Of a DNA stretch of 64,000 nucleotides, positions 32,986 to 56,899 are shown in pieces. The notes beneath the pieces are model-generated. The model saw only the letters and a list, made by a program, of their open reading frames with translations, ran no database searches and had not been told where the DNA came from. Location: positions 8,548 through 72,547 of the forward strand of contig CAWABQ010000022.1 of assembly GCA_963780265.1 (NCBI GenBank), read 5' to 3'. Both the position numbers and the translations under genes were made by a program. Each line of letters begins with the position of its first letter. Within the stretch, counting starts at the first letter, position 1. Origin of the DNA: Candidatus Bathyarchaeota archaeon (GTDB lineage Archaea; Thermoproteota; Bathyarchaeia; 40CM-2-53-6).

Positions 32986-33519
32986 TCAGGTTTTCCAGAA
33001 TCCGTCGAAGGTTGAGAATGCAAGGTCACCGATCTCCGGAATGAAATGGTCTGTCACGATTATCAGAAACGCCACTGCGAACACGCCAAGAATGAGGCCT
33101 GTGGGGTAGTGGGCGAGGGACCACGGTAAGATCCCGTTGTAGAGCAGCCATATCTCCAAGGCTATCCGGCCAATGTTCGCGACGTAGACGGTTACGGCAA
33201 CAATCCCAAGAGCAGTGAGTCTTTTCTTGATGGCAACTTTAGGCATGGCAACAATAATTCCCAAGAAGACCGCAATCACTTGAACACCAGTACACATTCG
33301 CTGGATTTCGAATTGATTCAAGAAGACTTGATTGCCCTGGTACCAAACGGTTGCCTTAATTCCAATTAACTCCATCAGGATAGCTGAATGTTCCGCAATG
33401 AGTTTTTCGAAGAAGAAATAGTTCGGTAAGTAGTATAACACGAGTGCGATAACGGATGTTATTCCGAGAACCCGTCCGATTTCGAAAATCTTCTGCCGCT
33501 GGAAGTGCTCCGATCCCAT
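32986..33519 (-). CDS. exosortase/archaeosortase-family protein (short form) with a Cys/Arg/His triad
   Basis: 177 aa with about 5 TM helices. Motifs are EIQRMC(76)TGVQV, VANIGR(118)IALE and LAH(137)YPTG. It is adjacent to a PEF-CTERM gene. Confidence 0.7.
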   Translation of the reverse strand: MGSEHFQRQKIFEIGRVLGITSVIALVLYYLPNYFFFEKLIAEHSAILMELIGIKATVWYQGNQVFLNQFEIQRMCTGVQVIAVFLGIIVAMPKVAIKKRLTALGIVAVTVYVANIGRIALEIWLLYNGILPWSLAHYPTGLILGVFAVAFLIIVTDHFIPEIGDLAFSTFDGFWKT

Positions 33520-33710
33520 AGCCTATGCTTCCTCGCATGGCACATAATGAAAGTTGCTTGCACTCCCCTTGCAGGGGCTGCGACTGCGTGCCCGTCCTAG
33601 GCACTGTTGTGGGCTGAGAATCTTGCAGAAACAAAACAAGTTCAAGGCTTTCCTCATTCACAAATGCCCATATAAAACGCAGAACTTGCGCTGGCAGTTT
33701 GCCCGTTCTG

Positions 33711-34178
33711 TTACCTTTTTCGTTTCCTGTGCTTCATTACCGTTAGGGCTGCTGTGATCGCTACGATCGCAATGGTCGATGCCATTCCCGTGGGAAATTC
33801 AGGTACTGGTACGTGGGATTGTTCAAGGGTGAAATTGCTTGGAGTCGATGAACCGTCCGAGACGGCAACAGTGTTACTGTAAGCCGTGTACCCTGGTTCT
33901 ATAACAGTGACGTTGTAAGTGCCTGTGGGTACGTACATTTCATAATAGCCGCTTGAGCCCGTATATGCCACGAATTTGTATTGGCCGTTGGTCGCGGTTA
34001 CAGTGGCCCATTCGATGGGTTGAAGTTGGTCGTACATATCGAATCCTAGCACCTGGCCCCTAATCAGTCCGCCTCCGTAACTCGGATTTGGTTGAGACTG
34101 CGCGATTGCTACTCTTGCTCCGAGCAGGGCCAGTGCGATCATTCCCGCCGCCATAAGGACGTAACACACGAGCTTCAT
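33711..34178 (-). CDS. secreted CarboxypepD_reg-like beta-sandwich protein with a PEF-CTERM sorting signal
   Basis: Signal peptide MKLVCYVLMAAGMIALALLGARVAIA. Then GYYEMYVPTGTYNVTVIEPGYTAY. The C-terminus is VPVPEFPTGMASTIAIVAITAALTVMKHRKRKR. Confidence 0.75.
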   Translation of the reverse strand: MKLVCYVLMAAGMIALALLGARVAIAQSQPNPSYGGGLIRGQVLGFDMYDQLQPIEWATVTATNGQYKFVAYTGSSGYYEMYVPTGTYNVTVIEPGYTAYSNTVAVSDGSSTPSNFTLEQSHVPVPEFPTGMASTIAIVAITAALTVMKHRKRKR

Positions 34179-34391
34179 CTAGAGTCGTTAGAGGGATGGA
34201 TGAAAGTTCCAATAAACGTTTTGCAGGAAAGGACCATTGTCTACACAAAAACCGTTCTGTAGATACGATACCTGAACATGAATAACGCAATTGCGTAAAC
34301 AATTGCCACATGGACATTTAGCAGTAGGCGTGGGGAAGGTACATGTCTACATTTTCAGTAGGCGCATTGGCGCCACTCGAGGCAATTTGCC

Positions 34392-36692
34392 ATGCTATCC
34401 AGAAATTTCGCGCTCAGCATCCTGTTGGCCGTGATTCTAGCGGGTTTCGTGGCCCCGTCTGTGAGTGGGCAGAACGTTTTCCTTACGGTGCCGCAACCGA
34501 GTGGTTCGGTATCGAATCAAATAATCGATTTCTACGCAGGGGGAAGCTTTGAAGGGTACCAGCTTCAAGTTTCTCCGAAGGGCGGCACTTTATCGATAAA
34601 CGATAACCTTGCGATGAGTCTGGTGCCTTGGGGTTACATCTCTGCCAAATGGACCGTCGGCAGAATTTACATCATTTTCCTGGTTAATGTTACGGAAACC
34701 AATTTCAGGATTGGTTTTCTTTATTTGACAAACTCCTCGGCGCAGGCGTTCTTGCTTCGTTGGTTCGACTATAGCAGCGGACAAGTCAGCACCTTGAACC
34801 TCCAGGGAGTTCAGCACGTGTATAACAGAACTGTGGCAACGAGTTCCGTGGAACTGCCAAGATTACACATCCCAACCTTGCCGACGGCGGTGAGTGGCAT
34901 GTACGCCCTCGGTTCTCGGCTGTACCTCAACGGGAAAGGAGGACTCCTACTGAATGATTCACGCCAACTCAAAATTGTCCCTCTACTGAACCAACTCTTC
35001 TACGGGCCAACGGATTATAACGAACTCTGGTCCCTCCTCGTTGATGATGCCGGTGGCTATTATTTTGCAATCCTATACTTACAAAATTCCGATTCGTCTC
35101 ACGTGATTATCGAACACCAACTGAGATTGAATGATTATAGAAAACTCAACGGCCAGACGGTTGATGCGAAATGGACTAAGGGACCGTTTGATCACCAAGT
35201 CATTGTGAGAACGCCAGCCGCAAGCATCACCGTCAAGATCGACGGGTTTCCGTTCCAAACAAACAACAACGGAGTAGCCTCGACCAGTGTTCCAAACGGT
35301 GTCGTGACCGTGCAGGTGCCCCAAGAGATCACGAACCCGGCTAACGCCAAGGTAATTTTCTCCAGATGGAACAAATATGGCGCTTCAAACCCGCTTAGCA
35401 TACAGGTAAATTCCTCGCTAGATATCACCGCAAAATACGACCAGCAGGTTCCATTGCTCGTAACGAGCCTATACGGAAACCCTCAGGGCTCGGGCTGGTA
35501 CCTGAGAGGTACAAATGCAACCTTTTCGGTGGAGAACGAGGTAAACAATGGCAACGGGACCAGAAGGGTTTTCCAACGTTGGGAGGGCGGTTCCAATTCT
35601 ACAGATAATCAGGCGTGGATTATTCTCAACTCTCCGGCACAGGTTTCAGCATCATGGAAAACTCAATTCCAAGTAACTGTAAATGCTGTCGGCTTGCCAG
35701 CGAACGCGAGTGCGGTTGCGCTCGTTGGCAATAACCTTGTGACGATCAACGGGTCCGAAGTGTATACGCAGTGGATTGACGCGAACACTCAGCTACCAAT
35801 TGTTGTGCAAACCAAGCAGATCACGGGCGCTTCAAACAATTACTTCCTCTCAGAACTTCGCGCCGACAACCAGACACTCACAGGAAACCTGGAGGTCGTG
35901 AAGCCCGTCGACGTCTCGCTGGTATACTCTGTAACTCCAAAACTAGCTCCAAAGCTCAGTCTCAATATTCTCCCATCCGTTGCGGTCGCAGGGTACCCGT
36001 TATCGATTACGTGCTCGGTTGATGGGTTGACGGGTGGACCTGCAATGGTCGACATAGGATACAGCTTGACCGACGGCAACTGGCAAGAGCTCGCAAAGGT
36101 GCCGGCGACACAAAACGGTGTGTTTGCTTACACGTGGCAACCGAGTACAGCCGGAAACTATTCGATTAGAGCCTATTGGCCGGGTGACCAAATGCATTCT
36201 TCAGCTTCCCGTGTAGTCGCGGTGAGAGTGGTGGGTTCCTCGGTTCCAACGTTCGGTGGTTCCGACGTGCTTACGCCGCTCTTCCAGGCCGGTTTAGCAG
36301 CCATTGGGCAAGTACCGTACCTTTCCTCTCTAATCACCTTCGCCGCGTCCATGCTAACCTTGGGGTACGTTTTGACATCATTCCTTCTCCCCGGCGGCTC
36401 ACCAATGTTTGGATACTTTATCGGAAGCATCTTCGTCGGATTCATCTATGTTTTCCCACTTAGTGCCGCTGTGGTACTCATCAGGGCCTCGAAGACAGGG
36501 CGTAGGCCTAGTTTGCTCTGGCTTACGCCGCTACTGACTATTTGGTTATTATCACTAGCCTTAGTTATCATCAGTCCTACGCTCGTTACACCACAGCCTC
36601 TGGTCGTGGCATCACAGATCCTACTCGTGTTCAGCAACGTGTTTGTGATTCCCTTGCTTGCAGCCTTCGGGCTTGCTAGATTAGTTATTTGA
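34392..36692 (+). CDS. large surface protein with a polytopic C-terminal membrane domain
   Basis: Signal/anchor MLSRNFALSILLAVILAGFVAPSVSG. It has a GSGWY-type beta repeat and an Ig-like segment YSIRAYWPGDQMHSSASRVVAVRV. About 5 TM helices lie in the last 170 aa. The ORF is intact. Confidence 0.7.
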   Translation: MLSRNFALSILLAVILAGFVAPSVSGQNVFLTVPQPSGSVSNQIIDFYAGGSFEGYQLQVSPKGGTLSINDNLAMSLVPWGYISAKWTVGRIYIIFLVNVTETNFRIGFLYLTNSSAQAFLLRWFDYSSGQVSTLNLQGVQHVYNRTVATSSVELPRLHIPTLPTAVSGMYALGSRLYLNGKGGLLLNDSRQLKIVPLLNQLFYGPTDYNELWSLLVDDAGGYYFAILYLQNSDSSHVIIEHQLRLNDYRKLNGQTVDAKWTKGPFDHQVIVRTPAASITVKIDGFPFQTNNNGVASTSVPNGVVTVQVPQEITNPANAKVIFSRWNKYGASNPLSIQVNSSLDITAKYDQQVPLLVTSLYGNPQGSGWYLRGTNATFSVENEVNNGNGTRRVFQRWEGGSNSTDNQAWIILNSPAQVSASWKTQFQVTVNAVGLPANASAVALVGNNLVTINGSEVYTQWIDANTQLPIVVQTKQITGASNNYFLSELRADNQTLTGNLEVVKPVDVSLVYSVTPKLAPKLSLNILPSVAVAGYPLSITCSVDGLTGGPAMVDIGYSLTDGNWQELAKVPATQNGVFAYTWQPSTAGNYSIRAYWPGDQMHSSASRVVAVRVVGSSVPTFGGSDVLTPLFQAGLAAIGQVPYLSSLITFAASMLTLGYVLTSFLLPGGSPMFGYFIGSIFVGFIYVFPLSAAVVLIRASKTGRRPSLLWLTPLLTIWLLSLALVIISPTLVTPQPLVVASQILLVFSNVFVIPLLAAFGLARLVI

Positions 36693-36853: not shown

Positions 36854-37561
36854 ATGGTCGCAGGGACTAGACGGACACTTACGATACTCGCTCTCCTCTT
36901 TTTCGGATTATTCTCCGCGCCAAACCTGTCGTCGGCCGTCTTTGCGCAAAGTCATCCGGTTGTGGTTTTTGCGCCAGGGACCTCCATGCCGCTCCCCCCC
37001 TCCATGCCGCTTCCGGTTCCGGCTCCTGGCTATGTGCCACACGCTGCCCCTGTTTCAGGAGTGATACGGGTTCTTCTGATAGCCGCCGCTTTCTCAAACC
37101 TCAACTACACGGTCAGTATTGCTACGTTAAAGCAGCAGTATTTTGGAACCCTAGCCGCATACTACCGTGAAGCATCGCTTGGGACGCTGACAATTCAGGG
37201 GGATGCAATCGGTTGGTACAAGCTTCCCTATCCCGAATCGCATTATGGAATGGACTGCCAAGCGATCGACGATGCCGACTGCAGCGGAGCGGACCAGTCA
37301 TGGCAGATTGCACAGGACGCTGCAAATCTGGCCCAGAAAGATGTTGACTTCACCAATTACGGTTATTTCGTCTTCATACACTCTGGGAATGGTGAGGAAT
37401 CTTCAGGCGTGAAGAGTGACGTATGGTCAGTAACCTACCTTGGCGGAGTGTGGGTTAGAACAAATTCGAAAACTCTCACAAAATTCAACATTGACCCGGA
37501 ACTTGAAGCCGGTGGGCCGTACCTAACGGAGTCTGGGTTCACGAATTCGGACACAACCTAG
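36854..37561 (+). CDS. secreted M6-like (immune inhibitor A-type) metalloprotease, N-terminal fragment (frameshifted)
   Basis: Signal peptide MVAGTRRTLTILALLFFGLFSAPNLSSAVFA. The break is at about 37507-37530. Confidence 0.7.
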   Translation: MVAGTRRTLTILALLFFGLFSAPNLSSAVFAQSHPVVVFAPGTSMPLPPSMPLPVPAPGYVPHAAPVSGVIRVLLIAAAFSNLNYTVSIATLKQQYFGTLAAYYREASLGTLTIQGDAIGWYKLPYPESHYGMDCQAIDDADCSGADQSWQIAQDAANLAQKDVDFTNYGYFVFIHSGNGEESSGVKSDVWSVTYLGGVWVRTNSKTLTKFNIDPELEAGGPYLTESGFTNSDTT

Positions 37562-39591
37562 GATTGCCCGATCTATACAACACCAGTACCGGCAAAACAA
37601 TTCTAGGCCCCTGGGAGCTGATGGACAAAGGTTTGTGGAACGGCGCTCCGCCTGGATCAAGCCCAGCCCACATGACGGCCTGGCCTAAACTTCAGCTGGG
37701 GTTCATCAGTGGATCCCAACTCGCAATGGCGAACCTTGGAGTGACAACGACCTTTGTTGTTGATCCAACTGAGATACCTTCAAGTAACGTGCACGCAGTC
37801 GAGATACCGCTCACGAGCAGTTCGGACCAAAGCCATTACTACCTGGTTGAAGTGCGATCAGCGACGGGCTTCGACGCGGCTTTACCTGAGACAGGTGTGC
37901 TGATCACCTACGTAGATGAGAATGCCGTCATCGGTAAAGTACACGTTATGGATGGCCATCCAGGCGTTCCAGACTTGGAGGATGCTGTTTGGAATGTCGG
38001 CCAAACCTTCAGTGACAGTCAGAACCACATCGCCGTAACTGTGACCGGCAAGGTAGGAAATTCCTACCAAGTAACTGTGAATAGGGGCAACGAACAGCCG
38101 CCGCCACCACCGAATCAGAACCAAACAACCTACATCGACCTCGCAATAACAGGAGTCAACGCTCAACCCCAAGTGATCACAAGCCCGAACACGACGGTTA
38201 CCATCACCATCCAAGTATCAGACCTAGGAACTCAAGCAGCAACCAATGTTCCCGTCGGAGTTGACTTGGATGGCCAGCACTACACGAACACCGAGATCAG
38301 CGTAGCCGCAGTTTCTTCAACTCAGACTAGTTTCACCTGGGTTTCAGTCCTCGGAAGTCACACGTTTCAAATAACCATAGATCCGTACCGTACGATTAAT
38401 GACACGAACACCGCGAATAATAATGCGACCTTCACCGTAAACGTTGGACCCGTACTTACCATCAACGTTCCTGGCAATCTAACGTCCGCCGGCAACATGT
38501 GGGTTCTTATTGATGGGGTGAAGTACAATTTGACCTCAAGCCAATTTCAGACGAGCGTCCCTAACGGTACAATAACAGTTCAAATCCAGCCTGCAGTCAA
38601 CACCTCGCTGGGCGTTCGACAATCGTTCACTGGATGGTCAGACGGAGACTTAACCAACCCGCGGAAAATCGTGATCACCTCCAACACCGTAATACAGGCC
38701 GAGTACGCGACCCAGTACCTACTCGCCGTCGATCAGAATGGCGGCACAACAACAGCCAGTGGATGGTACACCCCAGACAGCATAGTGAATGTTAACGCCG
38801 CGAATCCATCAAACGTAACGACAAACGCGTCGCGACTAATATTTTCCAGTTGGACCGGAGACCTCAATTCAAATTCAACTTCACTCACAGTCAACATGAC
38901 CAACCCGGTTACAGTGAAAGCAAACTGGATGAAGCAGTACTATGTCACCATAATCTCCCCGACTGGCTCGCCTACGGGCAGTGGCTGGTATAATGCAGGG
39001 AACGTAGCCACGGTGGCCGTTCAATCAATTGTTCAATACTCGAATGGAACCAGACAACTCTTCACGGGCTGGAATTCGACCTCGCTTGGAAACAACCCGA
39101 CAGCACAGATTTACGTAAACGCCCCCACGACACTGCAAGCCGGGTGGAAGACGCAATATCGGATAACGGTAGATTCAGAATACGGAACACCGCTCGGATC
39201 AGGGTGGTACAATGTTGGGTCAACTGTCTCAATCTCCGTACAAAATGAGGTGGACTATGGAAACGCAACACGCCGAACATTCGCTGACTGGACAGGGGAC
39301 TATTCAGGCACCTCACCCAGCATAACACTACAAGCAAATGCGCCGAAGAACTTGACAGCAAGATGGAACACGGCGTACTTGGTCACCTTCATCGTTAATG
39401 GTGTCTCAAATTCAACAATTCTCAAACTCAACCTGAACAATTCGTACCATGACCTGTCAGTCAACAACAACTACCATTTTTGGTTCCAAAAGGGTACCAC
39501 GATAAACCCCTCATTGAACCAAACGATAATTGACGGATTCACTGTTCACCAGTTCGCCGGATGGAAAAACGCAGACGGGAGGGACAATTGA
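37507..39591 (+). CDS. M6-like metalloprotease: catalytic motif, CARDB-like domain and GSGWY repeats (the track ORF starts at 37564)
   Basis: Frame 1 reads GVWVHEFGHNLGLPDLY (HExxH at 37540-37554). A CARDB-like segment follows (TVTITIQVSDLGTQAATNVPVGVDLDG...NDTNTANNNATFTVNV). There are at least 3 tandem ~75-aa repeats containing GSGWY. Confidence 0.75.
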   Translation, partial: SRWAVPNGVWVHEFGHNLGLPDLYNTSTGKTILGPWELMDKGLWNGAPPGSSPAHMTAWPKLQLGFISGSQLAMANLGVTTTFVVDPTEIPSSNVHAVEIPLTSSSDQSHYYLVEVRSATGFDAALPETGVLITYVDENAVIGKVHVMDGHPGVPDLEDAVWNVGQTFSDSQNHIAVTVTGKVGNSYQVTVNRGNEQPPPPPNQNQTTYIDLAITGVNAQPQVITSPNTTVTITIQVSDLGTQAATNVPVGVDLDGQHYTNTEISVAAVSSTQTSFTWVSVLGSHTFQITIDPYRTINDTNTANNNATFTVNVGPVLTINVPGNLTSAGNMWVLIDGVKYNLTSSQFQTSVPNGTITVQIQPAVNTSLGVRQSFTGWSDGDLTNPRKIVITSNTVIQAEYATQYLLAVDQNGGTTTASGWYTPDSIVNVNAANPSNVTTNASRLIFSSWTGDLNSNSTSLTVNMTNPVTVKANWMKQYYVTIISPTGSPTGSGWYNAGNVATVAVQSIVQYSNGTRQLFTGWNSTSLGNNPTAQIYVNAPTTLQAGWKTQYRITVDSEYGTPLGSGWYNVGSTVSISVQNEVDYGNATRRTFADWTGDYSGTSPSITLQANAPKNLTARWNTAYLVTFIVNGVSNSTILKLNLNNSYHDLSVNNNYHFWFQKGTTINPSLNQTIIDGFTVHQFAGWKNADGRDN

Positions 39592-39799
39592 AGCACCATT
39601 GGTTGTCAACGCCCCCGGAACGTATGTGGCATCGTACTCAACCTCCTTCACACTTCCTCCAATACCCGGATTCCCAACCGAGGGAATTATCCTGGGCATC
39701 CTTATCGGGATGCTAATGTTGGCAGCCATTCGAAGACGTAGGCATGAAAAGCCGAACTTTGATAGCCGCCTGTCCGGAACGCAGGAAGCCATCAACTAA
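39530..39799 (+). CDS. C-terminal sorting-signal fragment of the M6-like protease
   Basis: The join at the G-runs 39577-39583 gives ...GWKNADGGTIEAPLVVN.... The end is LPPIPGFPTEGIILGILIGMLMLAAIRRRRHE, i.e. PGF/PEF-type motif, TM helix and basic cluster. Confidence 0.65.
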   Translation: MTDSLFTSSPDGKTQTGGTIEAPLVVNAPGTYVASYSTSFTLPPIPGFPTEGIILGILIGMLMLAAIRRRRHEKPNFDSRLSGTQEAIN

Positions 39800-39803
39800 G
39801 AAC

Positions 39804-41984
39804 TTATGCAGCTAATCTACGGTTCTTAGATTTGGTAAGGAACACGATGCCCCGCATTTCCTCGACCTGGAAACGTATCCAATTGTCGATGTAGGGTTTA
39901 TCCCGCAGCTTCTTGATCCTCAACCGCCTTCTTTGGCCCACCCCCGACTCCTGCAGCTGAGTCTCTATCACACAATCGGAAAATTCCTCGAGCTTTGTCA
40001 TATCCTCGCTCTCGATGCCCGTGCCGACGGTTACGCAGAATTTTCCGTTATTTGCCTTAACCTTAGCTGCCACTGATTGAAGGAAATTAATCAAGTAATC
40101 AATACGCAATGCGGTGATTAGCGGGTTTAACGAGTCAAGATAGACGTCTGCTTTGGGACCTGCGATCTCAAGGCACTTTGTGATGTTCAAACCCAAGTTC
40201 GTCAAGTCTGTGTGTGAACCAACTGAAAATTCCTCTTTTGACGAGCCTCCTCCAACCGCGGAATAAGCATCGATGAAAATGACTCTGCCGTTTTTCAAAT
40301 CGGCTTCGGTACAAACTCCGAGCTTGATGAGGCTTTCGCGGATTTTGTCCGGGTATTCGGTGTTGGTGATGTATACTGATTTGCCTAAAGCCAAGTGCTC
40401 TCCTGCCAAAGAGTTCAACAAAACAGATTTGCCCGAGCCGGAGTTGCCTGCTATGGTTGTGAAACATGCTTCGGGTAAACCACCATGGGTCAGCTCCGTG
40501 AAGTACTTGAAGCCCGTCGGATAGAGCTTGCCCCTCCTCCTCCGAATTAGCACGACCGACGCGACGGATATTATGGCCAGCGTGGCGATGACAGTGATTG
40601 TCCGATGTGGGAACGGAACCCTAACAATTGCTCCACCGTTTGCTATCACATTCAATGGCGACTGATATGTAGCGAAAAAGTAGTCTGCGCGAACGGTATA
40701 GTTGCCCCCCGGGATTTTCTGGAAGTTAGCAACGCCATCTATCCCAGTAAGGACATCCTGAACCACGGATTTCTGGGACAGCGTGACGTGAGCCGCAGGG
40801 ACTGGTAGCGCGAGCAGCGGTGTGTCCATAACTATCCGGACTGAGATATCGTAGAGTGCCAGTCGAAGTACAAACATTGAAGCGCAGTCGATAGAGGGAA
40901 GAGGTAGAAACGTTTGTGTCCCAAGCCAGGAGATTGTCAGATTCATCGGACCGACTATCTGGCTTGAAGGTAGTGACAAGATGCCAACACCAGACGCGTT
41001 TGTGGCAGTGCTCCAAACTGCTTCGCCTCCAAACTTTACAGTTAAAGTAGCGTTCGGGAGAGACGTATTATCTGAAGTTACAACTTTAATTGAAACGGGG
41101 AAGAAATTGCTTACCCAGAAATGGTCGGTAAAGGAATAACTATCACCTGAGAGGTCGCGCAGCAGCAAGACTAGCTGCCATTGTCCCTGACTAAACCTCG
41201 AAGCAACCGAAGCCAGGCCTGAGTAGTCAGTGTTGTTCTTGAGGTTGATTGGAAAATTAATGTTCGTCCCGTTGGGAGCTGTCAGCTGAAAGGAAACGTA
41301 TGCGAAACGGTAAGCGCCAACTGAATCATTGACCGCCGCGCCGATTTTGACCGCCGCGCTGCCCCCAGCATCTGCTTGAAAGATTCTGCCGAAACTATGT
41401 TCTCCTTGCAAGCTCAGGTCGGCTGTTGTGGGCGATAGAGTTGGAAGCCTGAGACCTGTCGGAGCCGCCGGGTCGTCCCACACAAGCAGCGGCGTTCCTG
41501 AGCCTGATGTTTGAAGAACCCCGATGTGAAGTACTATTGCCGAGCCTGTTCGGAATTGGTAGTCGATAATTCCAACTCCAACGGTCACTGGCAAAATCGT
41601 TGTTCCCAACCTGATCGGGCCTGTGTCCACGATTGCAGAGGGGACCGCGATTTCTGTTCCTCCCTTAGGGAGTTCAGCTAGCCGTAAGCCAACCGTTCCG
41701 AAGAAGGCGTTGCTAGCCCGCAGGTATACTGTGAATGTTATGGCCCCGTAGATCCGCAGATTGTCACCAAGCACCGGGGTGAGCCTGAAAGTGATTCCTT
41801 TACTAACGTCGGCAGTTTTCTGGCCCGTCGGTTGTGGGAGGGCGTTAAGAATCGTTTGGTCCCCGTAAGAATGAGCGTACAGCGTAATGTTATGGGACGT
41901 AGGCGTAGGCTGGGCTTGCGCCCCGGCAGCCATCAACATTGGTAGAAGAATGATTGAGATGAGAAGTAGGCATGAGGAGCGCAT
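39804..41984 (-). CDS. single-pass transmembrane protein: large ectodomain plus cytoplasmic KaiC/RecA-like ATPase domain
   Basis: Signal peptide MRSSCLLLISIILLPMLMAAGAQA. The ~440-aa beta-rich ectodomain includes CarboxypepD_reg-like segments. The TM helix TVIATLAIISVASVVLI is followed by RRRRGK. Walker A is AGNSGSGKS and the Walker B-like motif is RVIFIDAYS. The ORF is intact. Confidence 0.7.
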   Translation of the reverse strand: MRSSCLLLISIILLPMLMAAGAQAQPTPTSHNITLYAHSYGDQTILNALPQPTGQKTADVSKGITFRLTPVLGDNLRIYGAITFTVYLRASNAFFGTVGLRLAELPKGGTEIAVPSAIVDTGPIRLGTTILPVTVGVGIIDYQFRTGSAIVLHIGVLQTSGSGTPLLVWDDPAAPTGLRLPTLSPTTADLSLQGEHSFGRIFQADAGGSAAVKIGAAVNDSVGAYRFAYVSFQLTAPNGTNINFPINLKNNTDYSGLASVASRFSQGQWQLVLLLRDLSGDSYSFTDHFWVSNFFPVSIKVVTSDNTSLPNATLTVKFGGEAVWSTATNASGVGILSLPSSQIVGPMNLTISWLGTQTFLPLPSIDCASMFVLRLALYDISVRIVMDTPLLALPVPAAHVTLSQKSVVQDVLTGIDGVANFQKIPGGNYTVRADYFFATYQSPLNVIANGGAIVRVPFPHRTITVIATLAIISVASVVLIRRRRGKLYPTGFKYFTELTHGGLPEACFTTIAGNSGSGKSVLLNSLAGEHLALGKSVYITNTEYPDKIRESLIKLGVCTEADLKNGRVIFIDAYSAVGGGSSKEEFSVGSHTDLTNLGLNITKCLEIAGPKADVYLDSLNPLITALRIDYLINFLQSVAAKVKANNGKFCVTVGTGIESEDMTKLEEFSDCVIETQLQESGVGQRRRLRIKKLRDKPYIDNWIRFQVEEMRGIVFLTKSKNRRLAA

Positions 41985-47182: not shown

Positions 47183-47212
47183 GCGCCTGCGCACGTAGAA
47201 ACTCCCTTCCCC

Positions 47213-47219
47213 TTTTTTT
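47213..47219 (+). terminator. oligo-T tract (T7), archaeal terminator-like, 30 nt after the surface-protein stop
   Basis: The sequence CCCCTTTTTTTCTTCTC follows the TAG at 47180-47182. Confidence 0.4.
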
Positions 47220-48977: not shown

Positions 48978-49229
48978 TGGATCATCGGCCTTCGTTCCTG
49001 GGCGCACATTACATTTAAGTTGTATTGGGATCTGCCATAGCTCTGCCAACGCCAAGGTCAAACCATATGGCAGGACGGATCAAATGTTTGGCCCCCCTGT
49101 TTGACGCAGAAGTGCGCGCTTGGGACTGCCTATTCTTAGCCTAATGGTTCAGTTGGTTTGTTGACAGAACCAGCAAATAATTATGGGAGCCGCTAACTCT
49201 CATTGAAGCAAGCTTAGGATGCGGCTGGA

Positions 49230-49979: not shown

Positions 49980-50066
49980 CCGCTTCCGGTTGGAAGGCTC
50001 CATACTTCGGAAGCTTCCAACCCCAGCTTCGCTTGAACACGAAAGTGCCCGTGGAGTCAACAAAAC

Positions 50067-50819
50067 ATGACTAAACGTGAGGTAATCAGAAAACATGAAA
50101 GTTCAATACTGAAAGGAATCGCTGTCATTTCTCTCCTAGTTCTAATTGTGCTCGGCTCAACCCTCGTAATGGTTCGTTTTCTCCGAACAAATCCCCGCAC
50201 CGATATTGGGGCAACCGGATGGCAACAAACGCCGGAGGTTCGAATAATCATGGATTCAACGGCAGATTGGGCACGCATGATGTTCAACGACCTGTACGGA
50301 ACCGACTCCAACGGCATCAGAATTGTTGACTTTCACTCCCACGGATGGTTGTTGGGTAACGATAGCAACTACCGAATAGACGCCGCCCGCGGCCTCACTT
50401 TCCTCGACATAATCTACAACTCAACAGTCATGAAGACGGGTGACATTATCGGGTTCTTCAAAGGCAATAATGATTTCAGGCACACTAGGATGTTCGCGGA
50501 CGTAATCCTTGAAGTGAACTTCGACATGACGAGGGTGTCCGTGTACCTAATGCTGGCGGGCGCGGGAACGACAACGTTTCAGTTCATAAACAAGGAAACC
50601 GGAGTAGTATTATGGGAAGACACCGAAACGGGGCGTAGCGTCACCCAGTATCTACCGAGGTACATATTCCCTCAAGTGTTCTACGCAAAGGAAAAGATCG
50701 ATACCTACCTAGTCTTAGCACTGCTCGCGGGTACAATTCTTACCATCATAGTTCTTAACCCAATGTACCTCCCCAGACCGGCCGAACGCAGATCTAAGAA
50801 AGAATCTGGTGGTCTCTAA
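50067..50819 (+). CDS. bitopic membrane protein, function unknown
   Basis: An N-terminal TM helix (GIAVISLLVLIVLGSTLVMV), an extracytoplasmic domain, and a C-terminal TM helix plus RRSKK. Confidence 0.5.
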   Translation: MTKREVIRKHESSILKGIAVISLLVLIVLGSTLVMVRFLRTNPRTDIGATGWQQTPEVRIIMDSTADWARMMFNDLYGTDSNGIRIVDFHSHGWLLGNDSNYRIDAARGLTFLDIIYNSTVMKTGDIIGFFKGNNDFRHTRMFADVILEVNFDMTRVSVYLMLAGAGTTTFQFINKETGVVLWEDTETGRSVTQYLPRYIFPQVFYAKEKIDTYLVLALLAGTILTIIVLNPMYLPRPAERRSKKESGGL

Positions 50820-50909
50820 AACTGCCAGCAAAGAAGCAAAGAATACGCGGCGGATTAGTCGACCGAACGCTGAACAAGAATTCACCCTACCTTTTGATCG
50901 GGGCCCTGA

Positions 50910-51941
50910 TTGATCTCCGTCATCATTACGCTCCCACGCTTTGGTGCGGGCATTCCAATGAGCGTCGATACGACCAGCCATCTCTACAAGATTCTATTCC
51001 TGCAAAACTGGTGGAAACAGGGTGTCTTCCCATTCTGGAGCCCCGACTGGTACGCGGGGTCCCCTGCACTCTTGCTGTACCCGCCCTTGAGTTACTATAT
51101 CACGGCCGGATTTTCCATGCTAGGCGTGGATCCACTCCTATGCTACAAGTTAGTTGACGCAGTTTTCTATTTGCTCGCCCCAGTCGCGGTCTACTTTCTC
51201 GCAAAGGAGTTTGGCTTGAGCAAAGGCCAAAGTGCCCTTGGAGCCTTGCTCTTCAGCGTAGTTCCTGAGGTTATTGAGAACCACATATTTTTCGATAGGT
51301 TCCCAACGGTAATGGCAATCCCAATTTTCTGCTCTTTCATCATAATGTTTCACCGGGCTCTCAAGGAGCAGGCCGGTCTTACCTACTCACTGGGCTCGAT
51401 TCTAACAATGTCGGCTCTACTCCTTACACACCATCTTTCGGCACTAATTGCCGGAATAGTCGCCGTCCTTATGGTTTTGCTTACGATTGGAAAACAAGGC
51501 CTGAGTAGGCCTCTCATGAAACTCATTCTTGTCGGGGTAGGAACAGCTGGGGTTACAGCCTTTTGGCTTGCTCCCTTCCTAACGTCATTCGGCTTATTCA
51601 CAGGGAATCAATTCTATAATAGAAACGTGACATTTCCGTTCCTGAGGTTCACCTATTTCGGCTTCGACGTCACCTCCTACCTTCTCGGAATCGCACAATT
51701 CATTCTCGCTGCCATCGGCGTACAGTCAATCGTCGGCCGCAAATTCGGGAAACGAATTCCCATCAACGCCGTCATATTCTTCGCGGCTCTGCTCTGCGGC
51801 ATGGCATTGTTCCAAACAGGAGAGGTGGCGAACAACCTGATTCTGATGGGCTTGGGGGAAGCGGTTGTAGCTGGCTCTTTCACAGTATTCCTTGGGCAGT
51901 TGATTGTTTTCAGTCACATTCGACGGATTTTGTCGCTGTAA
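50910..51941 (+). CDS. YfhO-like GT-C-fold membrane glycosyltransferase candidate, N-terminal fragment (frameshifted)
   Basis: VDTTSHLYKILFLQNWWKQGVFPFWSPDWYAGSP, then about 8 TM helices. The break is at the T-runs around 51928-51957. Confidence 0.55.
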   Translation: MISVIITLPRFGAGIPMSVDTTSHLYKILFLQNWWKQGVFPFWSPDWYAGSPALLLYPPLSYYITAGFSMLGVDPLLCYKLVDAVFYLLAPVAVYFLAKEFGLSKGQSALGALLFSVVPEVIENHIFFDRFPTVMAIPIFCSFIIMFHRALKEQAGLTYSLGSILTMSALLLTHHLSALIAGIVAVLMVLLTIGKQGLSRPLMKLILVGVGTAGVTAFWLAPFLTSFGLFTGNQFYNRNVTFPFLRFTYFGFDVTSYLLGIAQFILAAIGVQSIVGRKFGKRIPINAVIFFAALLCGMALFQTGEVANNLILMGLGEAVVAGSFTVFLGQLIVFSHIRRILSL

Positions 51942-51955
51942 ATGGGTCCATTTTT

Positions 51956-53017
51956 TTGGTTCTGTGGTTCATTCTCTTCCTTTGGCTCAGCTTGGGATAC
52001 TACGCGCTTCCTATTCTCCAGCTTCCATACATTAGCCCAATTTGGGTAAAGACCATGGACGTCTACAGAATCTGGCTATATCTCGCTCTTCCCATGAGCA
52101 TACTCGCAGCCTGGGGACTTCAAAGATCCATCACAAAGCTCCATTCCTGGAAACCGCTAGCGGTCATTTTTCTGGTCGCTCTCGTAACTGCCCCAATCGG
52201 CGCGGGCGTTGTGCTGACAACGAATTATGCCTTCAACAATAACGTTAACCTCGTACTACCGTACTCAGCCGCGAACGCGGAAATTCCCCCGGCAATAATA
52301 CACTATTTCCAAAACGACCCATCGCCGGGAAGAATTTTAGCCTTCAACGTGCCATTCTGGATTTATGTTCTGCCTAACTACGTCGACAAGTCAATCGTTG
52401 ACGGGTGGTATCCGCAAACTAAACTAGTCACCCAACTCGTAATCATAAATGACTACCGACTAGACGACTTGGAAAACGCCTCTAACGACACAGCACGCTT
52501 GGACACTTGGAGAAGCCTCCTTTCCGAAGCCAGCCAACTTGACGTAACCTGGGTTGTGATTGGTGATAACGGGACACTAGCGAACACGATCATGAATAAC
52601 GCACCTTTCAACGAACAGTTAACCGTCCCATACGGAAAAGTGGACCTGAAGGTGTACAAAGCATCACAGGTGCCGTCGCTCATTGATTCGGGCCAAGAGC
52701 TTTCAGAGAGCGTAGCTCGTCCAAACCCGGACACAATCATCCTAACCCTCAAACCCATTCCCAGCAGCAACACGCTAATCGTGAAAGAGGCTTACTTCCC
52801 GACCTGGGCTGCTACAGCAGACGGGCAAGCCTTGCTCGTGAAACGCGAGGCCAGCACGGGGTATATTATGCTAACAATCCCAGCATACACTCGACAAGTC
52901 ACAATTTACCAGAAACCGGGCACCAACATTTGGAACGCGCTTTCCCTCGTTAGTCTCTTAGCTTGTGTCGCTCTAATGGCGGCGTTGCTCCTGAAAAGAG
53001 GACGATGGAGGACCTAG
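51956..53017 (+). CDS. YfhO-like membrane glycosyltransferase candidate, C-terminal fragment
   Basis: The periplasmic-type domain ends EAYFPTWAATADGQALLVKRE...YTRQVTIYQKPG, followed by a final TM helix. This is the YfhO-like C-terminal pattern as I recall it. Confidence 0.55.
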   Translation: MVLWFILFLWLSLGYYALPILQLPYISPIWVKTMDVYRIWLYLALPMSILAAWGLQRSITKLHSWKPLAVIFLVALVTAPIGAGVVLTTNYAFNNNVNLVLPYSAANAEIPPAIIHYFQNDPSPGRILAFNVPFWIYVLPNYVDKSIVDGWYPQTKLVTQLVIINDYRLDDLENASNDTARLDTWRSLLSEASQLDVTWVVIGDNGTLANTIMNNAPFNEQLTVPYGKVDLKVYKASQVPSLIDSGQELSESVARPNPDTIILTLKPIPSSNTLIVKEAYFPTWAATADGQALLVKREASTGYIMLTIPAYTRQVTIYQKPGTNIWNALSLVSLLACVALMAALLLKRGRWRT

Positions 53018-53168
53018 GTTCAGTGTCAAAACGGACTGTGGTCTTGGAGGAGCAATTTCTCATTAGGATCAGCCTCCTCTTCGCGGCGGGCTTCATTTTG
53101 CGGAGGGACTCCAGAACTGGATCCGCGGAAAGATTGTAACTCACCCTGAAGTTGTCGCATTACTGCTC

Positions 53169-54248
53169 TTGACTTACGTGACAGCGTTTGTTCTCCTCAT
53201 CCTCGCAACATTAGACACCAATGCAATTCTCAGACTACGCAACGTCGCACTTGTATCATTGATTCTGGCTACTGTGGTAAGCTGGTATGTCATAACCCAA
53301 GTGGAACATCCAGCGGCATACCAAACAGACGCGCTCGCCTTCGCACATTACTCGGCCATCCTCCTCGCCAAGGGAGTGAATCCATACACTCAGGACCTAC
53401 AATCCGCCCTTTCCATGTTTTCAGTAGATCCACAGTTCGTCACCCTCACGCCCAACGGGGGGCTGGTTAGCACACTCAACTACCCCGCGCTGCAGGTGAT
53501 TCTCTTGCTTCCCGTAGTCTGGTCTGGGCTACACGACGCAAGAATCGTCGTTTACATTTTCGAGGTAGCCTCGATACTCGTAGTGTACCTTTGGGCGCCT
53601 AGAGAAATTCGGCCAATAGCCCTGGTCCCCCTGTTCGCCGGCTCTGACTTGGCCGTAAACTTCAGCGCCGGGGCGGTAGCGGACTTCCTCTGGGTTTTTC
53701 CACTAGTCCTGATGGTTGTCTACCTTGATCGCCCTCGAATCGCCGGAATCATGTTCGGCTTGGCGAGTGCGGTAAAGCAGACACCTTGGATATTGGCTCC
53801 CTTTCTCCTGGTCTGGTTTCTGCAAAGCAACCAAACTCTCCAGTTCAAGGAACGGCTGAAGCGAACAGGAGCTTTCGCCACCTTCGCGCTGACATCATTT
53901 CTAATTCCCAACCTGTGGTTCATGCTAGTTGACCTCGGTGCCTGGTATTCGGGAGTGGTTACCCCAGCGTTCGGCAACCTGGTGGTGTTGAGCCAAGGCC
54001 TATCTCTCATCACATTAGCAGCGGGCGTCCCATTACCCCCCGCCTTCTACCTGACTGCAACGCTTTCAGTAGCGGGAGTACTTCTCGTGTGTTACTTCAT
54101 TTACTTCGAAAAGCTTGCCTTAACTGTCTGGGCCTTCCCAGCGATCGTTCTCTGGTTCTCCTACCGTGGTTTACAGAACTACTTCATCTTCTGGACGCCA
54201 TTGCTCGTGATGTCCGCCATCATGCTCTATAAGAAGGCGCAACCATGA
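53169..54248 (+). CDS. polytopic membrane protein, possible DUF2029/GT87-like GT-C glycosyltransferase
   Basis: About 10 TM helices. QTDALAFAHYSAILLAKGVNPY...YPALQ resembles DUF2029. The call is weak and from memory. Confidence 0.4.
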   Translation: MTYVTAFVLLILATLDTNAILRLRNVALVSLILATVVSWYVITQVEHPAAYQTDALAFAHYSAILLAKGVNPYTQDLQSALSMFSVDPQFVTLTPNGGLVSTLNYPALQVILLLPVVWSGLHDARIVVYIFEVASILVVYLWAPREIRPIALVPLFAGSDLAVNFSAGAVADFLWVFPLVLMVVYLDRPRIAGIMFGLASAVKQTPWILAPFLLVWFLQSNQTLQFKERLKRTGAFATFALTSFLIPNLWFMLVDLGAWYSGVVTPAFGNLVVLSQGLSLITLAAGVPLPPAFYLTATLSVAGVLLVCYFIYFEKLALTVWAFPAIVLWFSYRGLQNYFIFWTPLLVMSAIMLYKKAQP

Positions 54249-55108
54249 AAGCGACCAGGCCAGCGGCCGCAGTACTGTCGATATCGATTTGTATTCTGGT
54301 CATTAGCCTAAGTTTCACCTCATATTACGGTCAAATATACCAACCATCGCCACTGCTCAACACGAACATGAAATTCTGGACCCTTGACCCAGCCAACAAC
54401 ATAACCAAACCATACCTTTGGCAAGTCGATATAATCAAAGGGGTTTCTGATAACGTCAGCATTTATCAATTCAATGTGGAAAATCGCTCATCCATTGCGC
54501 TAAGAGTGAATCGTAGCAACCAAAACTACACTTCGGTCTGGACGACTCTGCACCTCAGACAGGATTTGAATGGTCAAGGTCTTGATGCTATCTTCCGATC
54601 TACGATTTCGCTCTGGGTCTTTCCAACATTCACTTATTGGTACGATAACTCATCCTATAACCCTGAGAATGCGTTCGGCATCGAAATTAACGACGGAACG
54701 AATTTGATTTGGTTCATATTCGCCGATGAACCCAGCCAAGTCTTCCAATTGCCTCATCACAGGATTGTATTGACACAGACCCCGTTGAACATTTGGTCAC
54801 AAAGGGAAATTGATATCGCTAAACAATATGATGAAGCGGGCTGGAAGAAACCTGAGTCTTTATCCTTCATCCTTCTACTGGGGACGACAAAAGATCACCC
54901 AGGTGACTGGGTTGGCTATGTCTCAGGACTAAGCGTGGATGTAAGCCCATTACAGACTGAAAGCCTATCTGCCTCACAGAGGCTAACCGTCCTGGCCATA
55001 GATGCAGTGGTTATACTAGCTGTTGCAGCAGCTGCAATCAGCTTGCGTATGCGAAAGGGAGCAAGGAGATTTAGTAGGGCTAAGAGAAAGACTGTAGTCA
55101 AAAGGTGA
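54245..55108 (+). CDS. bitopic surface protein, function unknown
   Basis: An N-terminal anchor, a ~220-aa ectodomain with several N-x-S/T sequons, then a C-terminal TM helix plus RMRKGARRFSRAKRK. Its start overlaps the upstream stop (ATGA). Confidence 0.5.
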   Translation: MKATRPAAAVLSISICILVISLSFTSYYGQIYQPSPLLNTNMKFWTLDPANNITKPYLWQVDIIKGVSDNVSIYQFNVENRSSIALRVNRSNQNYTSVWTTLHLRQDLNGQGLDAIFRSTISLWVFPTFTYWYDNSSYNPENAFGIEINDGTNLIWFIFADEPSQVFQLPHHRIVLTQTPLNIWSQREIDIAKQYDEAGWKKPESLSFILLLGTTKDHPGDWVGYVSGLSVDVSPLQTESLSASQRLTVLAIDAVVILAVAAAAISLRMRKGARRFSRAKRKTVVKR

Positions 55109-55138
55109 CCTGTAACGCATAGGAAATCACACCAGGAA

Positions 55139-55726
55139 TTGAAGCGGACAGTGCCCTCGACTTGGCCCGAAATTCTGTCACAAACAAAGGCTAACGTCTT
55201 TTCGATTCTTTCAGTAGCCTTCGGCGTGGCAGCGCTAGCAATGATACTTGGGGCAACTCTCGCCCCTACGGGACAGATCAGTGGAGAGAGTCTCGTCCTG
55301 ATTGAGGTCCAGGTTCTTCCGGGGTTCTACATGAAGCCCATTACGTTCTTCACGTTCTCGCTCTTCCTGTCCTTTGCCTTCGGCCTCTACACACCCCAAA
55401 CCAGGCGGAGGTTCCTAGGAGCAAGGCCAAGTGTGCTTAGGACGGTGTACATCGGGGCCTGGCTCGTCGCGATGGGCAGCGGTTTCGAGATAGTGTATCA
55501 AATAGTGATTTGGTCAGCAGCCCTCGCTGTGCAGGGCCTGGCGAACCCCGATATCATAGTGAATCCCTTCCCTGTCTCTGTAAACCCAACTCCAATAAAC
55601 GTGGTCTTCGCCTCAAAGATGGTTGTCGTCATATTCTTCATGGCAATCTTCCTCATAGACTACATCCATCGAATTGACAGAATACTGCACGAGAGAGAGT
55701 TGGTAGAAACACTTCTCGGCAAATAA
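55139..55726 (+). CDS. membrane protein, function unknown
   Basis: 195 aa with about 5 TM helices. Confidence 0.45.
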   Translation: MKRTVPSTWPEILSQTKANVFSILSVAFGVAALAMILGATLAPTGQISGESLVLIEVQVLPGFYMKPITFFTFSLFLSFAFGLYTPQTRRRFLGARPSVLRTVYIGAWLVAMGSGFEIVYQIVIWSAALAVQGLANPDIIVNPFPVSVNPTPINVVFASKMVVVIFFMAIFLIDYIHRIDRILHERELVETLLGK

Positions 55727-55780
55727 CCTACCGCGAAGGCCTGAGTCAAAGAGGCTCAATTGAAAGGCAGCACATGAATA

Positions 55781-56899
55781 ATGCCTACATTAACAGGACG
55801 GCTAAAGAAATTCTGCGTAAACGTGTATCATGAGTTCCGCACTCGTGACGCTATTCCACTTCTACTAATTTTGTTCCCAGTAGTTTTCCTAATAGTGATC
55901 GACCCTGACTCTTTCTCATTAGTGTGGTTCTGGGGTCGCCAAGTCGGCAGGGCCGGTTTCGCGTTTCTCTTCTTCCTGGTAGCTTGGGATTGGCATGACT
56001 CAAGACGAATGATGAAAGCCACGCGGGCAAGGTGGCGATATGTGCTAGCCGGTCTGGTCCTAATTGTGATCCTCGTGTACTATTGGGAACGCGTAGTCAA
56101 CGTTGGTTTAACAGACTACCTCCGTGTATACGTCACTAGTCAATTGGGCGTTTCACAAAACTCGCCGCTCAGTTTTCTGCTGGCAATGGATTACTTTGTG
56201 TACGGCGCCTATTCCGTAGCGGTAACCGCCCTCCTGTACTCACCGAAAGTAATCCTCCGAATGGCCACCCCGGTAATCTACGTTGTCGGCAGCGGAATAC
56301 TTGACATGATGGACGCCTTCTTTCCTGAGGACTCCCTGGCCTTCCTACAGATCTGGGTCTACCTGATTTGGAATGTCGTAGTCTTCTTACTCGGTTTCAT
56401 GGGATACAATACAACCGTAAACCCACTTGTCAGCAAGATACCAATACCTAGCTTGCTGTTGCAAGGGAACCGTTTGTACCTTTGGGGTTTCAAGGGACCC
56501 ATGACCCTTGCCATATACTGGCCCTCATCCGGAGTCGTGAGCATGATTGTCTACAGCTTGGTAATTCTAGTTCTGATGGTGAAACTGGAGGCGCCAAGGA
56601 GGCGCAAGCTTGTCTACGCTGTGGTCGGGGCTGCAGGAACTTATTTCGTCAACGTTATACGCATCACATCGATCGTGCTCTACGTTACCTACATCAGCCT
56701 CGACGTGGAAGCTTTTCATCAATCCATCGGCGAGGTACTGTTCATCTGCTGGATTTTCATTTACCTACTGCTCGTCCTTCATGTAGAGGACAGTTACCAC
56801 GGAAACAAGTCCAACCAATCAGGGGTCAGAACCAAGAAACCGGGCTTGCCACAAACCCGTACACGTCACACCAAGAAAGCTAGAGGAACGAGAAGCTGA
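55781..56899 (+). CDS. exosortase/archaeosortase-family homolog with Ser replacing the catalytic Cys
   Basis: Polytopic. AIYWPS(249)SGVVSM, FVNVIR(294)ITS and AFH(313)QSIG align with C76, R118 and H137 of the 32986 paralog with matching spacing. The Ser codon TCA lies at 56525-56527. Confidence 0.6.
   Translation: MPTLTGRLKKFCVNVYHEFRTRDAIPLLLILFPVVFLIVIDPDSFSLVWFWGRQVGRAGFAFLFFLVAWDWHDSRRMMKATRARWRYVLAGLVLIVILVYYWERVVNVGLTDYLRVYVTSQLGVSQNSPLSFLLAMDYFVYGAYSVAVTALLYSPKVILRMATPVIYVVGSGILDMMDAFFPEDSLAFLQIWVYLIWNVVVFLLGFMGYNTTVNPLVSKIPIPSLLLQGNRLYLWGFKGPMTLAIYWPSSGVVSMIVYSLVILVLMVKLEAPRRRKLVYAVVGAAGTYFVNVIRITSIVLYVTYISLDVEAFHQSIGEVLFICWIFIYLLLVLHVEDSYHGNKSNQSGVRTKKPGLPQTRTRHTKKARGTRS

Follow-up and report, generated by a model that had tools for sequence, protein, structure and literature searches.

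A conserved Bathyarchaeia locus with two archaeosortase-family genes and a pair of KaiC-type ATPases, probably involved in cell-envelope biogenesis

We analysed a 64-kb stretch of contig CAWABQ010000022.1 (hereafter the window), from a Candidatus Bathyarchaeota archaeon, and within it a locus of about 24 kb (32986-56899) bracketed by two genes of the exosortase/archaeosortase family. This is probably a conserved cell-envelope biogenesis locus of a soil and peat lineage of Bathyarchaeia, with two sortase modules and a pair of KaiC-type ATPases. The first module would be a classical pairing, in which the gene of a small protein with a PVPEF tail is directly followed by that of a Cys/Arg/His archaeosortase (sortase 1). 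The second would consist of a seven-gene array on one strand that includes a Ser/Arg/His sortase (sortase 2), with a receptor-like transmembrane KaiC-type ATPase (TM-KaiC) and a PVPEF protein of about 1400 amino acids (aa) nearby. The nearest homologues of the window proteins belong to Candidatus Bathyarchaeia or Bathyarchaeota (NCBI and GTDB records), and no tRNA or Rfam element was found in the window. The locus is not a mobile island: horizontal acquisition is ruled out because the GC (guanine plus cytosine) content of the locus, 0.48-0.55, is that of its flanks and synteny with housekeeping neighbours is kept.

The array (49230-56899, plus strand) encodes in order a soluble KaiC-type ATPase, a bitopic protein of 250 aa, a GT-C-type glycosyltransferase candidate, a GT87-like candidate, a bitopic protein of 287 aa, a membrane protein of 195 aa and sortase 2, with spacing that ranges from 4-bp overlaps to 150-bp gaps (for the GT87-like gene, start and 5-nt gap are those after frame correction). 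All eight distinct genome or contig loci that extend far enough upstream have it complete and collinear, and it is complete in 21 of the 22 loci of a metagenome scan that extend at least 6.7 kb upstream of sortase 2. The array loci named from genomes and contigs are L001 (the same as L005 and counted once), L003, L004, L006, L007, L009, L012, L013 and L015; partial arrays occur only at contig ends (L008, L010, L011). The sole metagenome exception, L079, carries a sortase 2 paralogue of 55% identity (L079:9920-11065) without the array, and 4 kb upstream of it a protein of 1589 aa (L079:1150-5916) that ends in QQSNIPVPEFSG, a transmembrane (TM) helix and RRRHY. This paralogue is of the same type as the one at L014:10001-11077, also array-less and 55% identical, which shares its genome with an array copy, L009.

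The linkage extends beyond the array itself. The whole 24-kb layout, from sortase 1 to sortase 2, recurs on contig_12384 (L001 and L016; sortases 83-85% identical) and on contig_40402 (L012 and L017; sortases 60-68% identical), and the sortase 1 half, with small cargo, sortase 1, a 766-aa membrane protein, an M6 metalloprotease and TM-KaiC, recurs in L024 and L025. The large PVPEF protein is encoded directly upstream of the array in L001, L003, L006, L007, L012 and several metagenome loci. At greater distance, L023 (36% identical sortase) has the 287-aa and 195-aa genes followed by the sortase, then a KaiC and a TM-KaiC gene on the other strand and a homologue of the 766-aa protein, while L101 and L102 (44% identity) have a KaiC gene 3 kb downstream of the sortase on the opposite strand. 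Because the same partners are retained in changed order, these loci offer the best evidence available for a functional link between the array partners. A sortase 2 homologue of 43% identity in L022 stands among GT2 genes instead of the array. The preliminary description of this DNA had proposed a search for the gene neighbourhood in related genomes, naming chance juxtaposition as the alternative, and the loci above show that the genes are co-localised.

Sortase 1 (32986-33519, minus strand) is a Cys-type mini-archaeosortase of 177 aa from an unnamed Bathyarchaeia subfamily, and sortase 2 (55781-56899, plus strand) is a Ser-type, thaumarchaeosortase-like protein of 372 aa. Both match the exosortase/archaeosortase signature TIGR04178 (cut-off 23 bits), with 40.1 and 46.9 bits respectively, which bears out the earlier placing of two such proteins at the ends of the locus. 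Named subfamilies are another matter. Sortase 1 fails the models for heimdallarchaeosortase (NF045528, 43.5 bits for a cut-off of 130) and archaeosortase H (NF041736, 43.2 bits for a cut-off of 200), and has no match to archaeosortase C (TIGR03762, cut-off 100 bits) at E ≤ 0.01. The best named family of sortase 2 is thaumarchaeosortase (TIGR04297), where its 118 bits stay below the cut-off of 250, and on archaeosortase C it reaches 24.1 bits, again below the cut-off. The residues claimed for the two enzymes, C76/R118/H137 in sortase 1 and S249/R294/H313 in sortase 2, are exact. The former are invariant among 120 homologues of sortase 1, the latter in 110 homologues of sortase 2, as is the motif WPSSGV. 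At the nucleophile position, Cys173 in the archaeosortase ArtA, sortase 1 has the cysteine and sortase 2 has Ser249 instead; the downstream Arg and His of the family are kept in both.

The serine of sortase 2 had been taken to place this protein outside any known archaeosortase system. We find instead that the nearest curated family is TIGR04297 and that its true members have the same serine. In an alignment (A2) of 46 sequences, which joins Bathyarchaeia with thaumarchaeosortases named as such by NCBI in Nitrososphaeraceae, no variation occurs at Ser249, Arg294 or His313. When 1.84 billion proteins were searched with a profile of the sortase 2 family, only 332 cluster representatives matched at E ≤ 0.001; their nucleophile motif is P-S-[SA]-G within the window's clade and among nearer relatives, and P-C-[AS]-G at greater distance. 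One Ser-type match, P0258, is a true thaumarchaeosortase (363 bits on TIGR04297) and carries P-S-[SA]-G. The replacement is thus the hallmark of a curated family and not a peculiarity of this locus, since thaumarchaeosortases share the invariant serine, and this branch of the exosortase family would have either a serine nucleophile or another activity. Sortase 2 itself is only 26-32% identical to true thaumarchaeosortases. Its AF2 model (pLDDT 77.7) shows a membrane bundle built of helices and a single small sheet, for which Foldseek gave no fold match in the PDB at E ≤ 0.001, and its sequence has no match in the PDB.

The first array gene encodes the soluble, single-domain KaiC-type ATPase (49230-49979, plus strand; 249 aa). 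It scores 203.6 bits on PF06745 (cut-off 26.6), has the Walker A sequence GSPGSGKT, matches KaiC and PH0186 in the PDB with E values of 1e-40 to 1e-56 and, at 76-92% identity in relatives, is among the best-conserved proteins of the array. TM-KaiC (39804-41984, minus strand; 726 aa) is receptor-like, with a signal peptide, an ectodomain of about 440 aa ending in a CarboxypepD_reg domain (PF13620, 36 bits), the sequence VPFPH followed by a TM helix and RRRR, and a cytoplasmic KaiC-type ATPase domain (PF06745, 72 bits); its TM helices lie at about residues 4-22 and 462-480, and its Walker A, GNSGSGKS, at residue 513. The identification of two KaiC-type ATPases is therefore sound. On the circadian KaiC model TIGR02655, which has tandem domains and a cut-off of 546, both failed (117.5 and 16.7 bits), each being single-domain, and both stay below the cut-off of every named KaiC subfamily.

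Around residues 445-485 of TM-KaiC, the pattern [VLITI]P[FL]P[HFY], a TM helix and RRRR are present in 11 of 12 distinct orthologues, the one in L090 lacking them. The motif sits directly after the CarboxypepD_reg domain, like the one ahead of the cargo tails. The 195-aa protein has a comparable internal segment, LPGF[YF]MKP with a TM helix and RRR, which is invariant in an alignment (A4) of 11 sequences and resembles an internal PGF-type signal. On sorting-signal models both segments score below threshold and match in the TM and basic part only, and the idea that they are internal sorting signals, and so a physical link to the sortase, is speculative. ArtA does process an internal tripartite signal (PMC9263693). 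Since in TM-KaiC the signal-like module lies between a cargo-like ectodomain and the ATPase, the sortase could have this protein as its substrate or pseudo-substrate.

The 10-kb flanks of three thaumarchaeosortase loci of Nitrososphaeraceae contain neither a KaiC nor a GT-C gene nor one for the small membrane protein, so Ser-type sortases do not in general depend on the ATPases. In Bathyarchaeia, we infer from the conserved gene order that the KaiC link may regulate the sortase array through ATP. The supposition that an association between KaiC and archaeosortase is unreported agrees with the searchable literature, in which we found no report of it, and the linkage itself is conserved. Archaeal KaiC-like ATPases have reportedly been proposed as a 'signal transduction hub' by Makarova et al. 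in 2017; the strict linkage of KaiC to the sortase array would give some of the many archaeal KaiC homologues a testable role.

Scanning the tails of all open reading frames (ORFs) in the window for P-x-P-[EG]-F, a TM helix and a basic cluster returned three proteins only, all in the locus. The small secreted cargo (33711-34178, minus strand; 155 aa) has a signal peptide, a CarboxypepD_reg domain (PF13620, 43 bits) and the tail SHVPVPEFPTG, TM helix and KHRKRKR. The large secreted protein (42959-47182, plus strand; orthologues of 1382-1456 aa), a candidate for the main envelope protein, ends in SNIPVPEFSG, a TM helix and RRRRR, with a CarboxypepD_reg domain ahead of the tail. The third is the M6 metalloprotease (36854-39799, plus strand; about 980 aa), which has a CARDB domain and PPIPGFP followed by a TM helix and RRRR. 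All three tails had been listed beforehand and do exist, with the correction that the M6 signal is not at the very C-terminus, 20 residues following RRRRHE. The large-cargo tail is conserved in L001, L003, L006, L007, L012 and L079, the small-cargo tail is kept in orthologues, and the two share the context [LM]-E-[QE]-S-[NH]-[IV]-P-V-P-E-F.

The PVPEF tails are PEF-like without being formal PEF-CTERM signals. PEF-CTERM (TIGR03024, cut-off 23 bits) is the top-scoring signal model for both window tails and for most PVPEF tails; the small cargo reaches 19.1 bits on it, the large cargo 17.6 and the orthologous tails 11.6-18.8. On PEFG-CTERM (TIGR04296, cut-off 25 bits) the window tails stay at 6.5 and 11.7 bits. 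The M6 tail is borderline on Loki-CTERM (NF033507, cut-off 19.9 bits), with 21.1 bits scanned alone, 19.6 within the ORF and 17.9 in the L016 orthologue, and the IPGFP tail of a protein in L025 reaches 28.3 bits. The preliminary description had grouped all three proteins as PEF-CTERM cargo and invoked the pairing of this signal with archaeosortase C. Since neither sortase is archaeosortase C, that rule does not apply directly here. Adjacency favours sortase 1 as the putative enzyme for the small cargo, its gene lying directly downstream of the small-cargo gene in L016, L017, L018, L024 and L025, and the large PVPEF protein accompanies sortase 2-type genes both in the array loci and, independently, in L079.

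Two polytopic glycosyltransferase candidates lie in the middle of the array. The first (50910-53017, plus strand; about 702-708 aa) is a PTPS_related protein of GT-C type, with 60.2 bits on PF10131 (56.2 frame-corrected; cut-off 26.4) and at least seven TM helices in a hydropathy scan. The second (53023-54248, plus strand; about 408 aa) is GT87/DUF2029-like, its 23.9 bits on PF09594 (22.7 frame-corrected) lying just under the cut-off of 25 and the matches of its orthologues being weak. Of the two GT-C-like proteins proposed earlier, the first thus passes its family model and the second is sub-threshold. The Pfam model YfhO, suggested in the preliminary description, gave no match at E ≤ 0.01; PTPS_related and a weak match to PMT_2 came up instead.

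The remaining array proteins belong to no recognised family. The 250-aa bitopic protein (50067-50819, plus strand), with N- and C-terminal TM helices and an ectodomain between them, occupies the same position in every complete array. The 287-aa bitopic protein (54245-55108, plus strand) has a C-terminal TM helix with a basic tail and a sequon-rich ectodomain (six N-x-S/T sequons, 21 per 1000 residues), and occurs in all arrays as well as in the distant L023. The ectodomains have a raised density of sequons, as would fit glycoprotein cargo. The small polytopic protein of 195 aa (55139-55726, plus strand), without a match in Pfam or the PDB, is always encoded directly upstream of sortase 2, an adjacency that persists in L023 at 36% sortase identity. 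Neither the 250-aa nor the 287-aa protein has a family match.

Four genes of the locus are not open in the window as a result of single-base indels. The M6 protease runs through three frames, with a 1-nt deletion at 37517, just ahead of its HEFGH (HExxH) motif, and a 1-nt insertion at 39573; after frame correction PF05547 gives 66.1 bits (cut-off 22) and CARDB 44.4, so that the earlier assignment to peptidase family M6 (PF05547, TIGR03296) holds but not that to a single open gene. The 4.2-kb gene at 42959-47182, also presented as one gene, passes through frames 2, 1, 2, 3, 1 and 2 in turn (at least five changes) with in-frame stops. One nucleotide is deleted at 51938 in the GT-C gene and one near 53100 in the GT87-like gene. 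The orthologues, on a 2.36-Mb contig and elsewhere, are uninterrupted (M6 proteases of 963, 989 and 973 aa, large proteins of 1382-1456 aa, GT-C 708 aa, GT87-like 408 aa). Apart from these breaks, the ORFs listed in the preliminary description are present at the coordinates it gave, and the bitopic and polytopic topologies agree with the hydropathy scan.

These breaks are almost certainly assembly errors, and the genes in the organism intact, because equal 1-nt indels break genes outside the locus and a near-identical contig is free of them. Outside the locus, frame switches affect the thermosome gene (about 24884-26525, with a switch near 25600-25700), the DegT aminotransferase gene (23234-24416, three switches) and the cation-efflux gene (28307-29344, two switches), and a broken thermosome is not credible biology. 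The metagenome contig L026, 98.4% identical to 45799-64000 of the window, lacks the coding indels at 51938, 53100 and 59900. These three positions fall at CGCG in L026, and 39573 falls at CGCG in L016; the coincidence of four coding indels with CGCG in relatives suggests a systematic, context-specific base-calling error at a subset of such sites, with DNA base modification possibly behind it. CGCG sites cover only about 1.6% of positions. A general loss of them from the assembly is ruled out by their counts, 63 in the window segment and 73 in L026, which mean that most are read correctly and only a fraction is affected. The assembly is error-prone throughout, and ORF calls in the window are not trustworthy without a reference.

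We propose the following scheme for the locus. The sortases would cut the PVPEF and PGF tails and attach the proteins anew to the membrane surface, in the manner of ArtA in Haloferax. The two GT-C-type enzymes would glycosylate the cargo or its anchor at the outer face from lipid-linked sugars. Enzymes of the GT-C class generally act at this face and with such sugars. The KaiC pair may form an ATPase ring tethered to the membrane; this ring would gate or power the module, with the TM-KaiC ectodomain as its sensor of the envelope. A stronger version, in which the Ser-nucleophile sortase and the two GT-C enzymes form one membrane complex coupled through the KaiC ring to cytoplasmic ATP turnover, with TM-KaiC as the coupling device, is tentative and in our estimate rather unlikely. 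If true, this would make it the first sortase system with an ATP link or feedback control, and an archaeal KaiC homologue would gain a concrete cellular role.

Several other explanations have to be weighed against this scheme. With at least nine frame breaks inside 24 kb, the locus might appear to be decaying, the protease, large-cargo and glycosyltransferase genes being true pseudogenes. We regard this as very improbable, since 1-nt indels are equally frequent in the three genes outside the locus, the 98.4% identical contig is free of all three coding indels it spans, and these three together with 39573 sit at CGCG in relatives, the mark of a systematic base-calling error. A chance juxtaposition of functionally unrelated genes has practically no probability left, with the array complete in all eight genome or contig loci and, L079 excepted, in all metagenome loci that have enough flanking sequence, and its members rearranged yet still linked at 36% sortase identity. 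Sortase 2 could also be a catalytically dead pseudo-sortase whose sole part is to scaffold the glycosylation proteins or to act as their receptor, since Cys173 is required in ArtA (PMC9263693) and Ser249 takes the same position. This is improbable to our mind: Ser, Arg and His are invariant in the 110 close homologues and in the 46 aligned sequences including those of Nitrososphaeraceae, as predicted for an active site rather than a dead enzyme, and in the Nitrososphaeraceae loci the Ser-type gene is the sole sortase seen within the 10-kb flanks.

A more serious alternative, which we still consider unlikely, is that two independent systems are stable neighbours. Sortase 1 and the PVPEF and PGF proteins would then be an ordinary archaeosortase system, the sortase 2 array would build a surface glycan or lipoglycan in the manner of bacterial exosortase/EPS loci without acting on those proteins, and the KaiC proteins would be general signalling ATPases. 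Such a division is suggested by the tight pair that sortase 1 and the small cargo form in five loci, by the two glycosyltransferase candidates and lack of a cargo gene in the array, and by the variable block of GT2 and epimerase genes just downstream in relatives. It fits poorly, however, with the large PVPEF protein, which stands directly upstream of the array in the loci named above and also beside the array-less sortase 2 paralogue of L079, and with L023, where TM-KaiC and the 766-aa protein move with sortase 2. Against a single envelope locus, in turn, it must be said that the functional coupling of its proteins is read from gene order; that the replacement of the essential cysteine in sortase 2 could mean altered chemistry or lost catalysis; that the PVPEF tails score under the PEF-CTERM cut-off and GT87 membership is sub-threshold; that cargo assignment is divided, the small cargo adjoining sortase 1 and the large cargo tracking sortase 2-type genes; that the three Nitrososphaeraceae thaumarchaeosortase loci stand without KaiC or GT-C neighbours; and that the 250-, 287-, 195- and 527-aa proteins have no recognisable family. 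On balance we keep to a conserved envelope-biogenesis locus with two sortase modules. To our knowledge Bathyarchaeia abound in soils and sediments, with hardly any in culture, and have an uncharacterised cell envelope; the locus supplies candidates for their envelope proteins and, likely, for the anchoring and glycosylation enzymes.

Outside the array, the locus is divided into several transcription units. Small cargo and sortase 1 form one on the minus strand, and the 766-aa membrane protein and the M6 protease another on the plus strand. The 766-aa protein (34392-36692, plus strand) has a signal peptide, a large ectodomain with Ig-like domains (a weak Big_3_5 match) and 'GSGWY' repeats, and four or five C-terminal TM helices; it is syntenic in L016, L017 and L024, and adjoins TM-KaiC in L009, L023, L044 and L047. 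Its segment at 35211-36011 and the C-terminal half of the M6 protease (38700-39400) share repeated 'GSGWY...F.GW' domains, and the M6 protein of L016 aligns to the 766-aa gene region with 25-32% identity and E values down to 7e-16. In L083 and L087-L091 (for example L090:9807-13419; sortases 50-53% identical), sortase 2 is followed by a divergent second version of the 195-aa protein and, on the opposite strand, by a relative of the 766-aa protein with about 1000 aa.

TM-KaiC is preceded in its minus-strand unit by a basic protein of 193 aa (42229-42810), which has no family match and is not core to the locus. The slot of this protein, between TM-KaiC and the large cargo, is variable, because it is kept in the 83-85% identical relative (L016) and occupied by a MazE/PIN toxin-antitoxin pair in the 60-68% identical one (L017:3438-4042). 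The large-cargo gene (plus strand) and the gene of an anchored protein of 497-527 aa (47478-49061, minus strand) each stand alone. The latter protein has an N-terminal signal or TM helix and a C-terminal TM helix with a basic tail, its true start is likely Met28 (near 48980), and it occurs only in close relatives (L001, L004, L026, L029, L095). It had been labelled an alpha/alpha-toroid protein, which we could not substantiate: it has no match in Pfam, NCBIfam or the PDB (the last up to E = 10), and a single-sequence AF2 model, mostly helical, is unreliable at pLDDT 36.

On the sortase 1 side, the locus adjoins a Peptidase_M50 (site-2 protease) gene and genes for two proteins of 239 and 219 aa with no assigned function (30384-32964), an arrangement that recurs in L016, L017, L024 and L025. 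Downstream of sortase 2, four genes (57190-60768; L001:11203-15047) follow in nearly all loci and encode a kinase-like protein of 551 aa, a HAD hydrolase, a membrane protein of 169 aa and a TrmI-type methyltransferase. The same block adjoins the 43% identical sortase 2 homologue of L022. In relatives, inserted GT2 and epimerase genes separate sortase 2 from this block; the window is without them.

Among known systems, thaumarchaeosortase (TIGR04297) is closest to sortase 2, with similar length and helical layout and with P-S-[SA]-G, Arg and His invariant in both. From their consecutive model numbers we take TIGR04297 and TIGR04296 to be a sortase-signal pair of Nitrososphaeria, and the cargo motif of that system contains PEF, as do the PVPEF tails of the locus. 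The differences lie in the 118 bits of sortase 2, far from the cut-off of 250, in the low PEFG-CTERM scores of the tails and in the Nitrososphaeraceae loci, which are without the array neighbours. PEFG-CTERM proteins have been reported in Nitrosopumilus proteomes (PMC6593220). Archaeosortase C (TIGR03762) is paired with PEF-CTERM (TIGR03024) by Haft et al. 2012, as that work is cited in PMC5244752. That system shares with the locus the tripartite tail of PEF motif, TM helix and basic cluster, but archaeosortase C is absent here and all PVPEF tails stay below 23 bits.

The working model for tail processing is ArtA and PGF-CTERM of Haloferax volcanii, in which a polytopic transpeptidase cuts a tripartite signal and the protein becomes lipid-anchored; ArtA needs Cys173, Arg214 and Arg253 for activity (PMC9263693). 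Sortase 1 keeps the Cys and an Arg, whereas it has only 177 aa and scores 32.7 bits on the ArtA model (cut-off 75), and the cargo motif is a different one; the locus showed neither PssA nor PssD genes. The Asgard heimdallarchaeosortase and ArtH are the top subfamily matches of sortase 1 (about 43 bits each), far below their cut-offs, and of the Asgard signals Loki-CTERM and Heimdall-CTERM it is the former whose cut-off is reached by the IPGFP tail in L025 and, as a borderline case, by that of the M6 protease, here in a Bathyarchaeia host.

The KaiC-like ATPases of archaea (ArlH/FlaH, PH0186, PH0284) likewise have a single RecA-like KaiC domain with Walker A and B, and ArlH is a precedent of a KaiC-like protein that serves a membrane machine; in contrast to these, one copy in the locus follows a 440-aa ectodomain and a TM helix in the same polypeptide. 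Bacterial PEP-CTERM/exosortase (EpsH) loci are said, in Haft's description, to lie within polysaccharide biosynthesis clusters. Like these, the present locus has a sortase-family gene inside a glycosyltransferase-rich operon, while its array differs in having GT-C-type membrane enzymes, a Ser sortase and KaiC ATPases. The searchable literature gave us no account of the locus, as had been supposed: neither a fixed array of a Ser-type sortase, two GT-C-type enzymes and KaiC, nor the accompanying receptor-like KaiC, nor such an array beside a second, Cys-type sortase module, although an earlier mention is possible. All its recognisable parts belong to known families (archaeosortases, tripartite signals, KaiC-like ATPases, GT-C enzymes and M6 proteases), and it is their combination that seems to be new.

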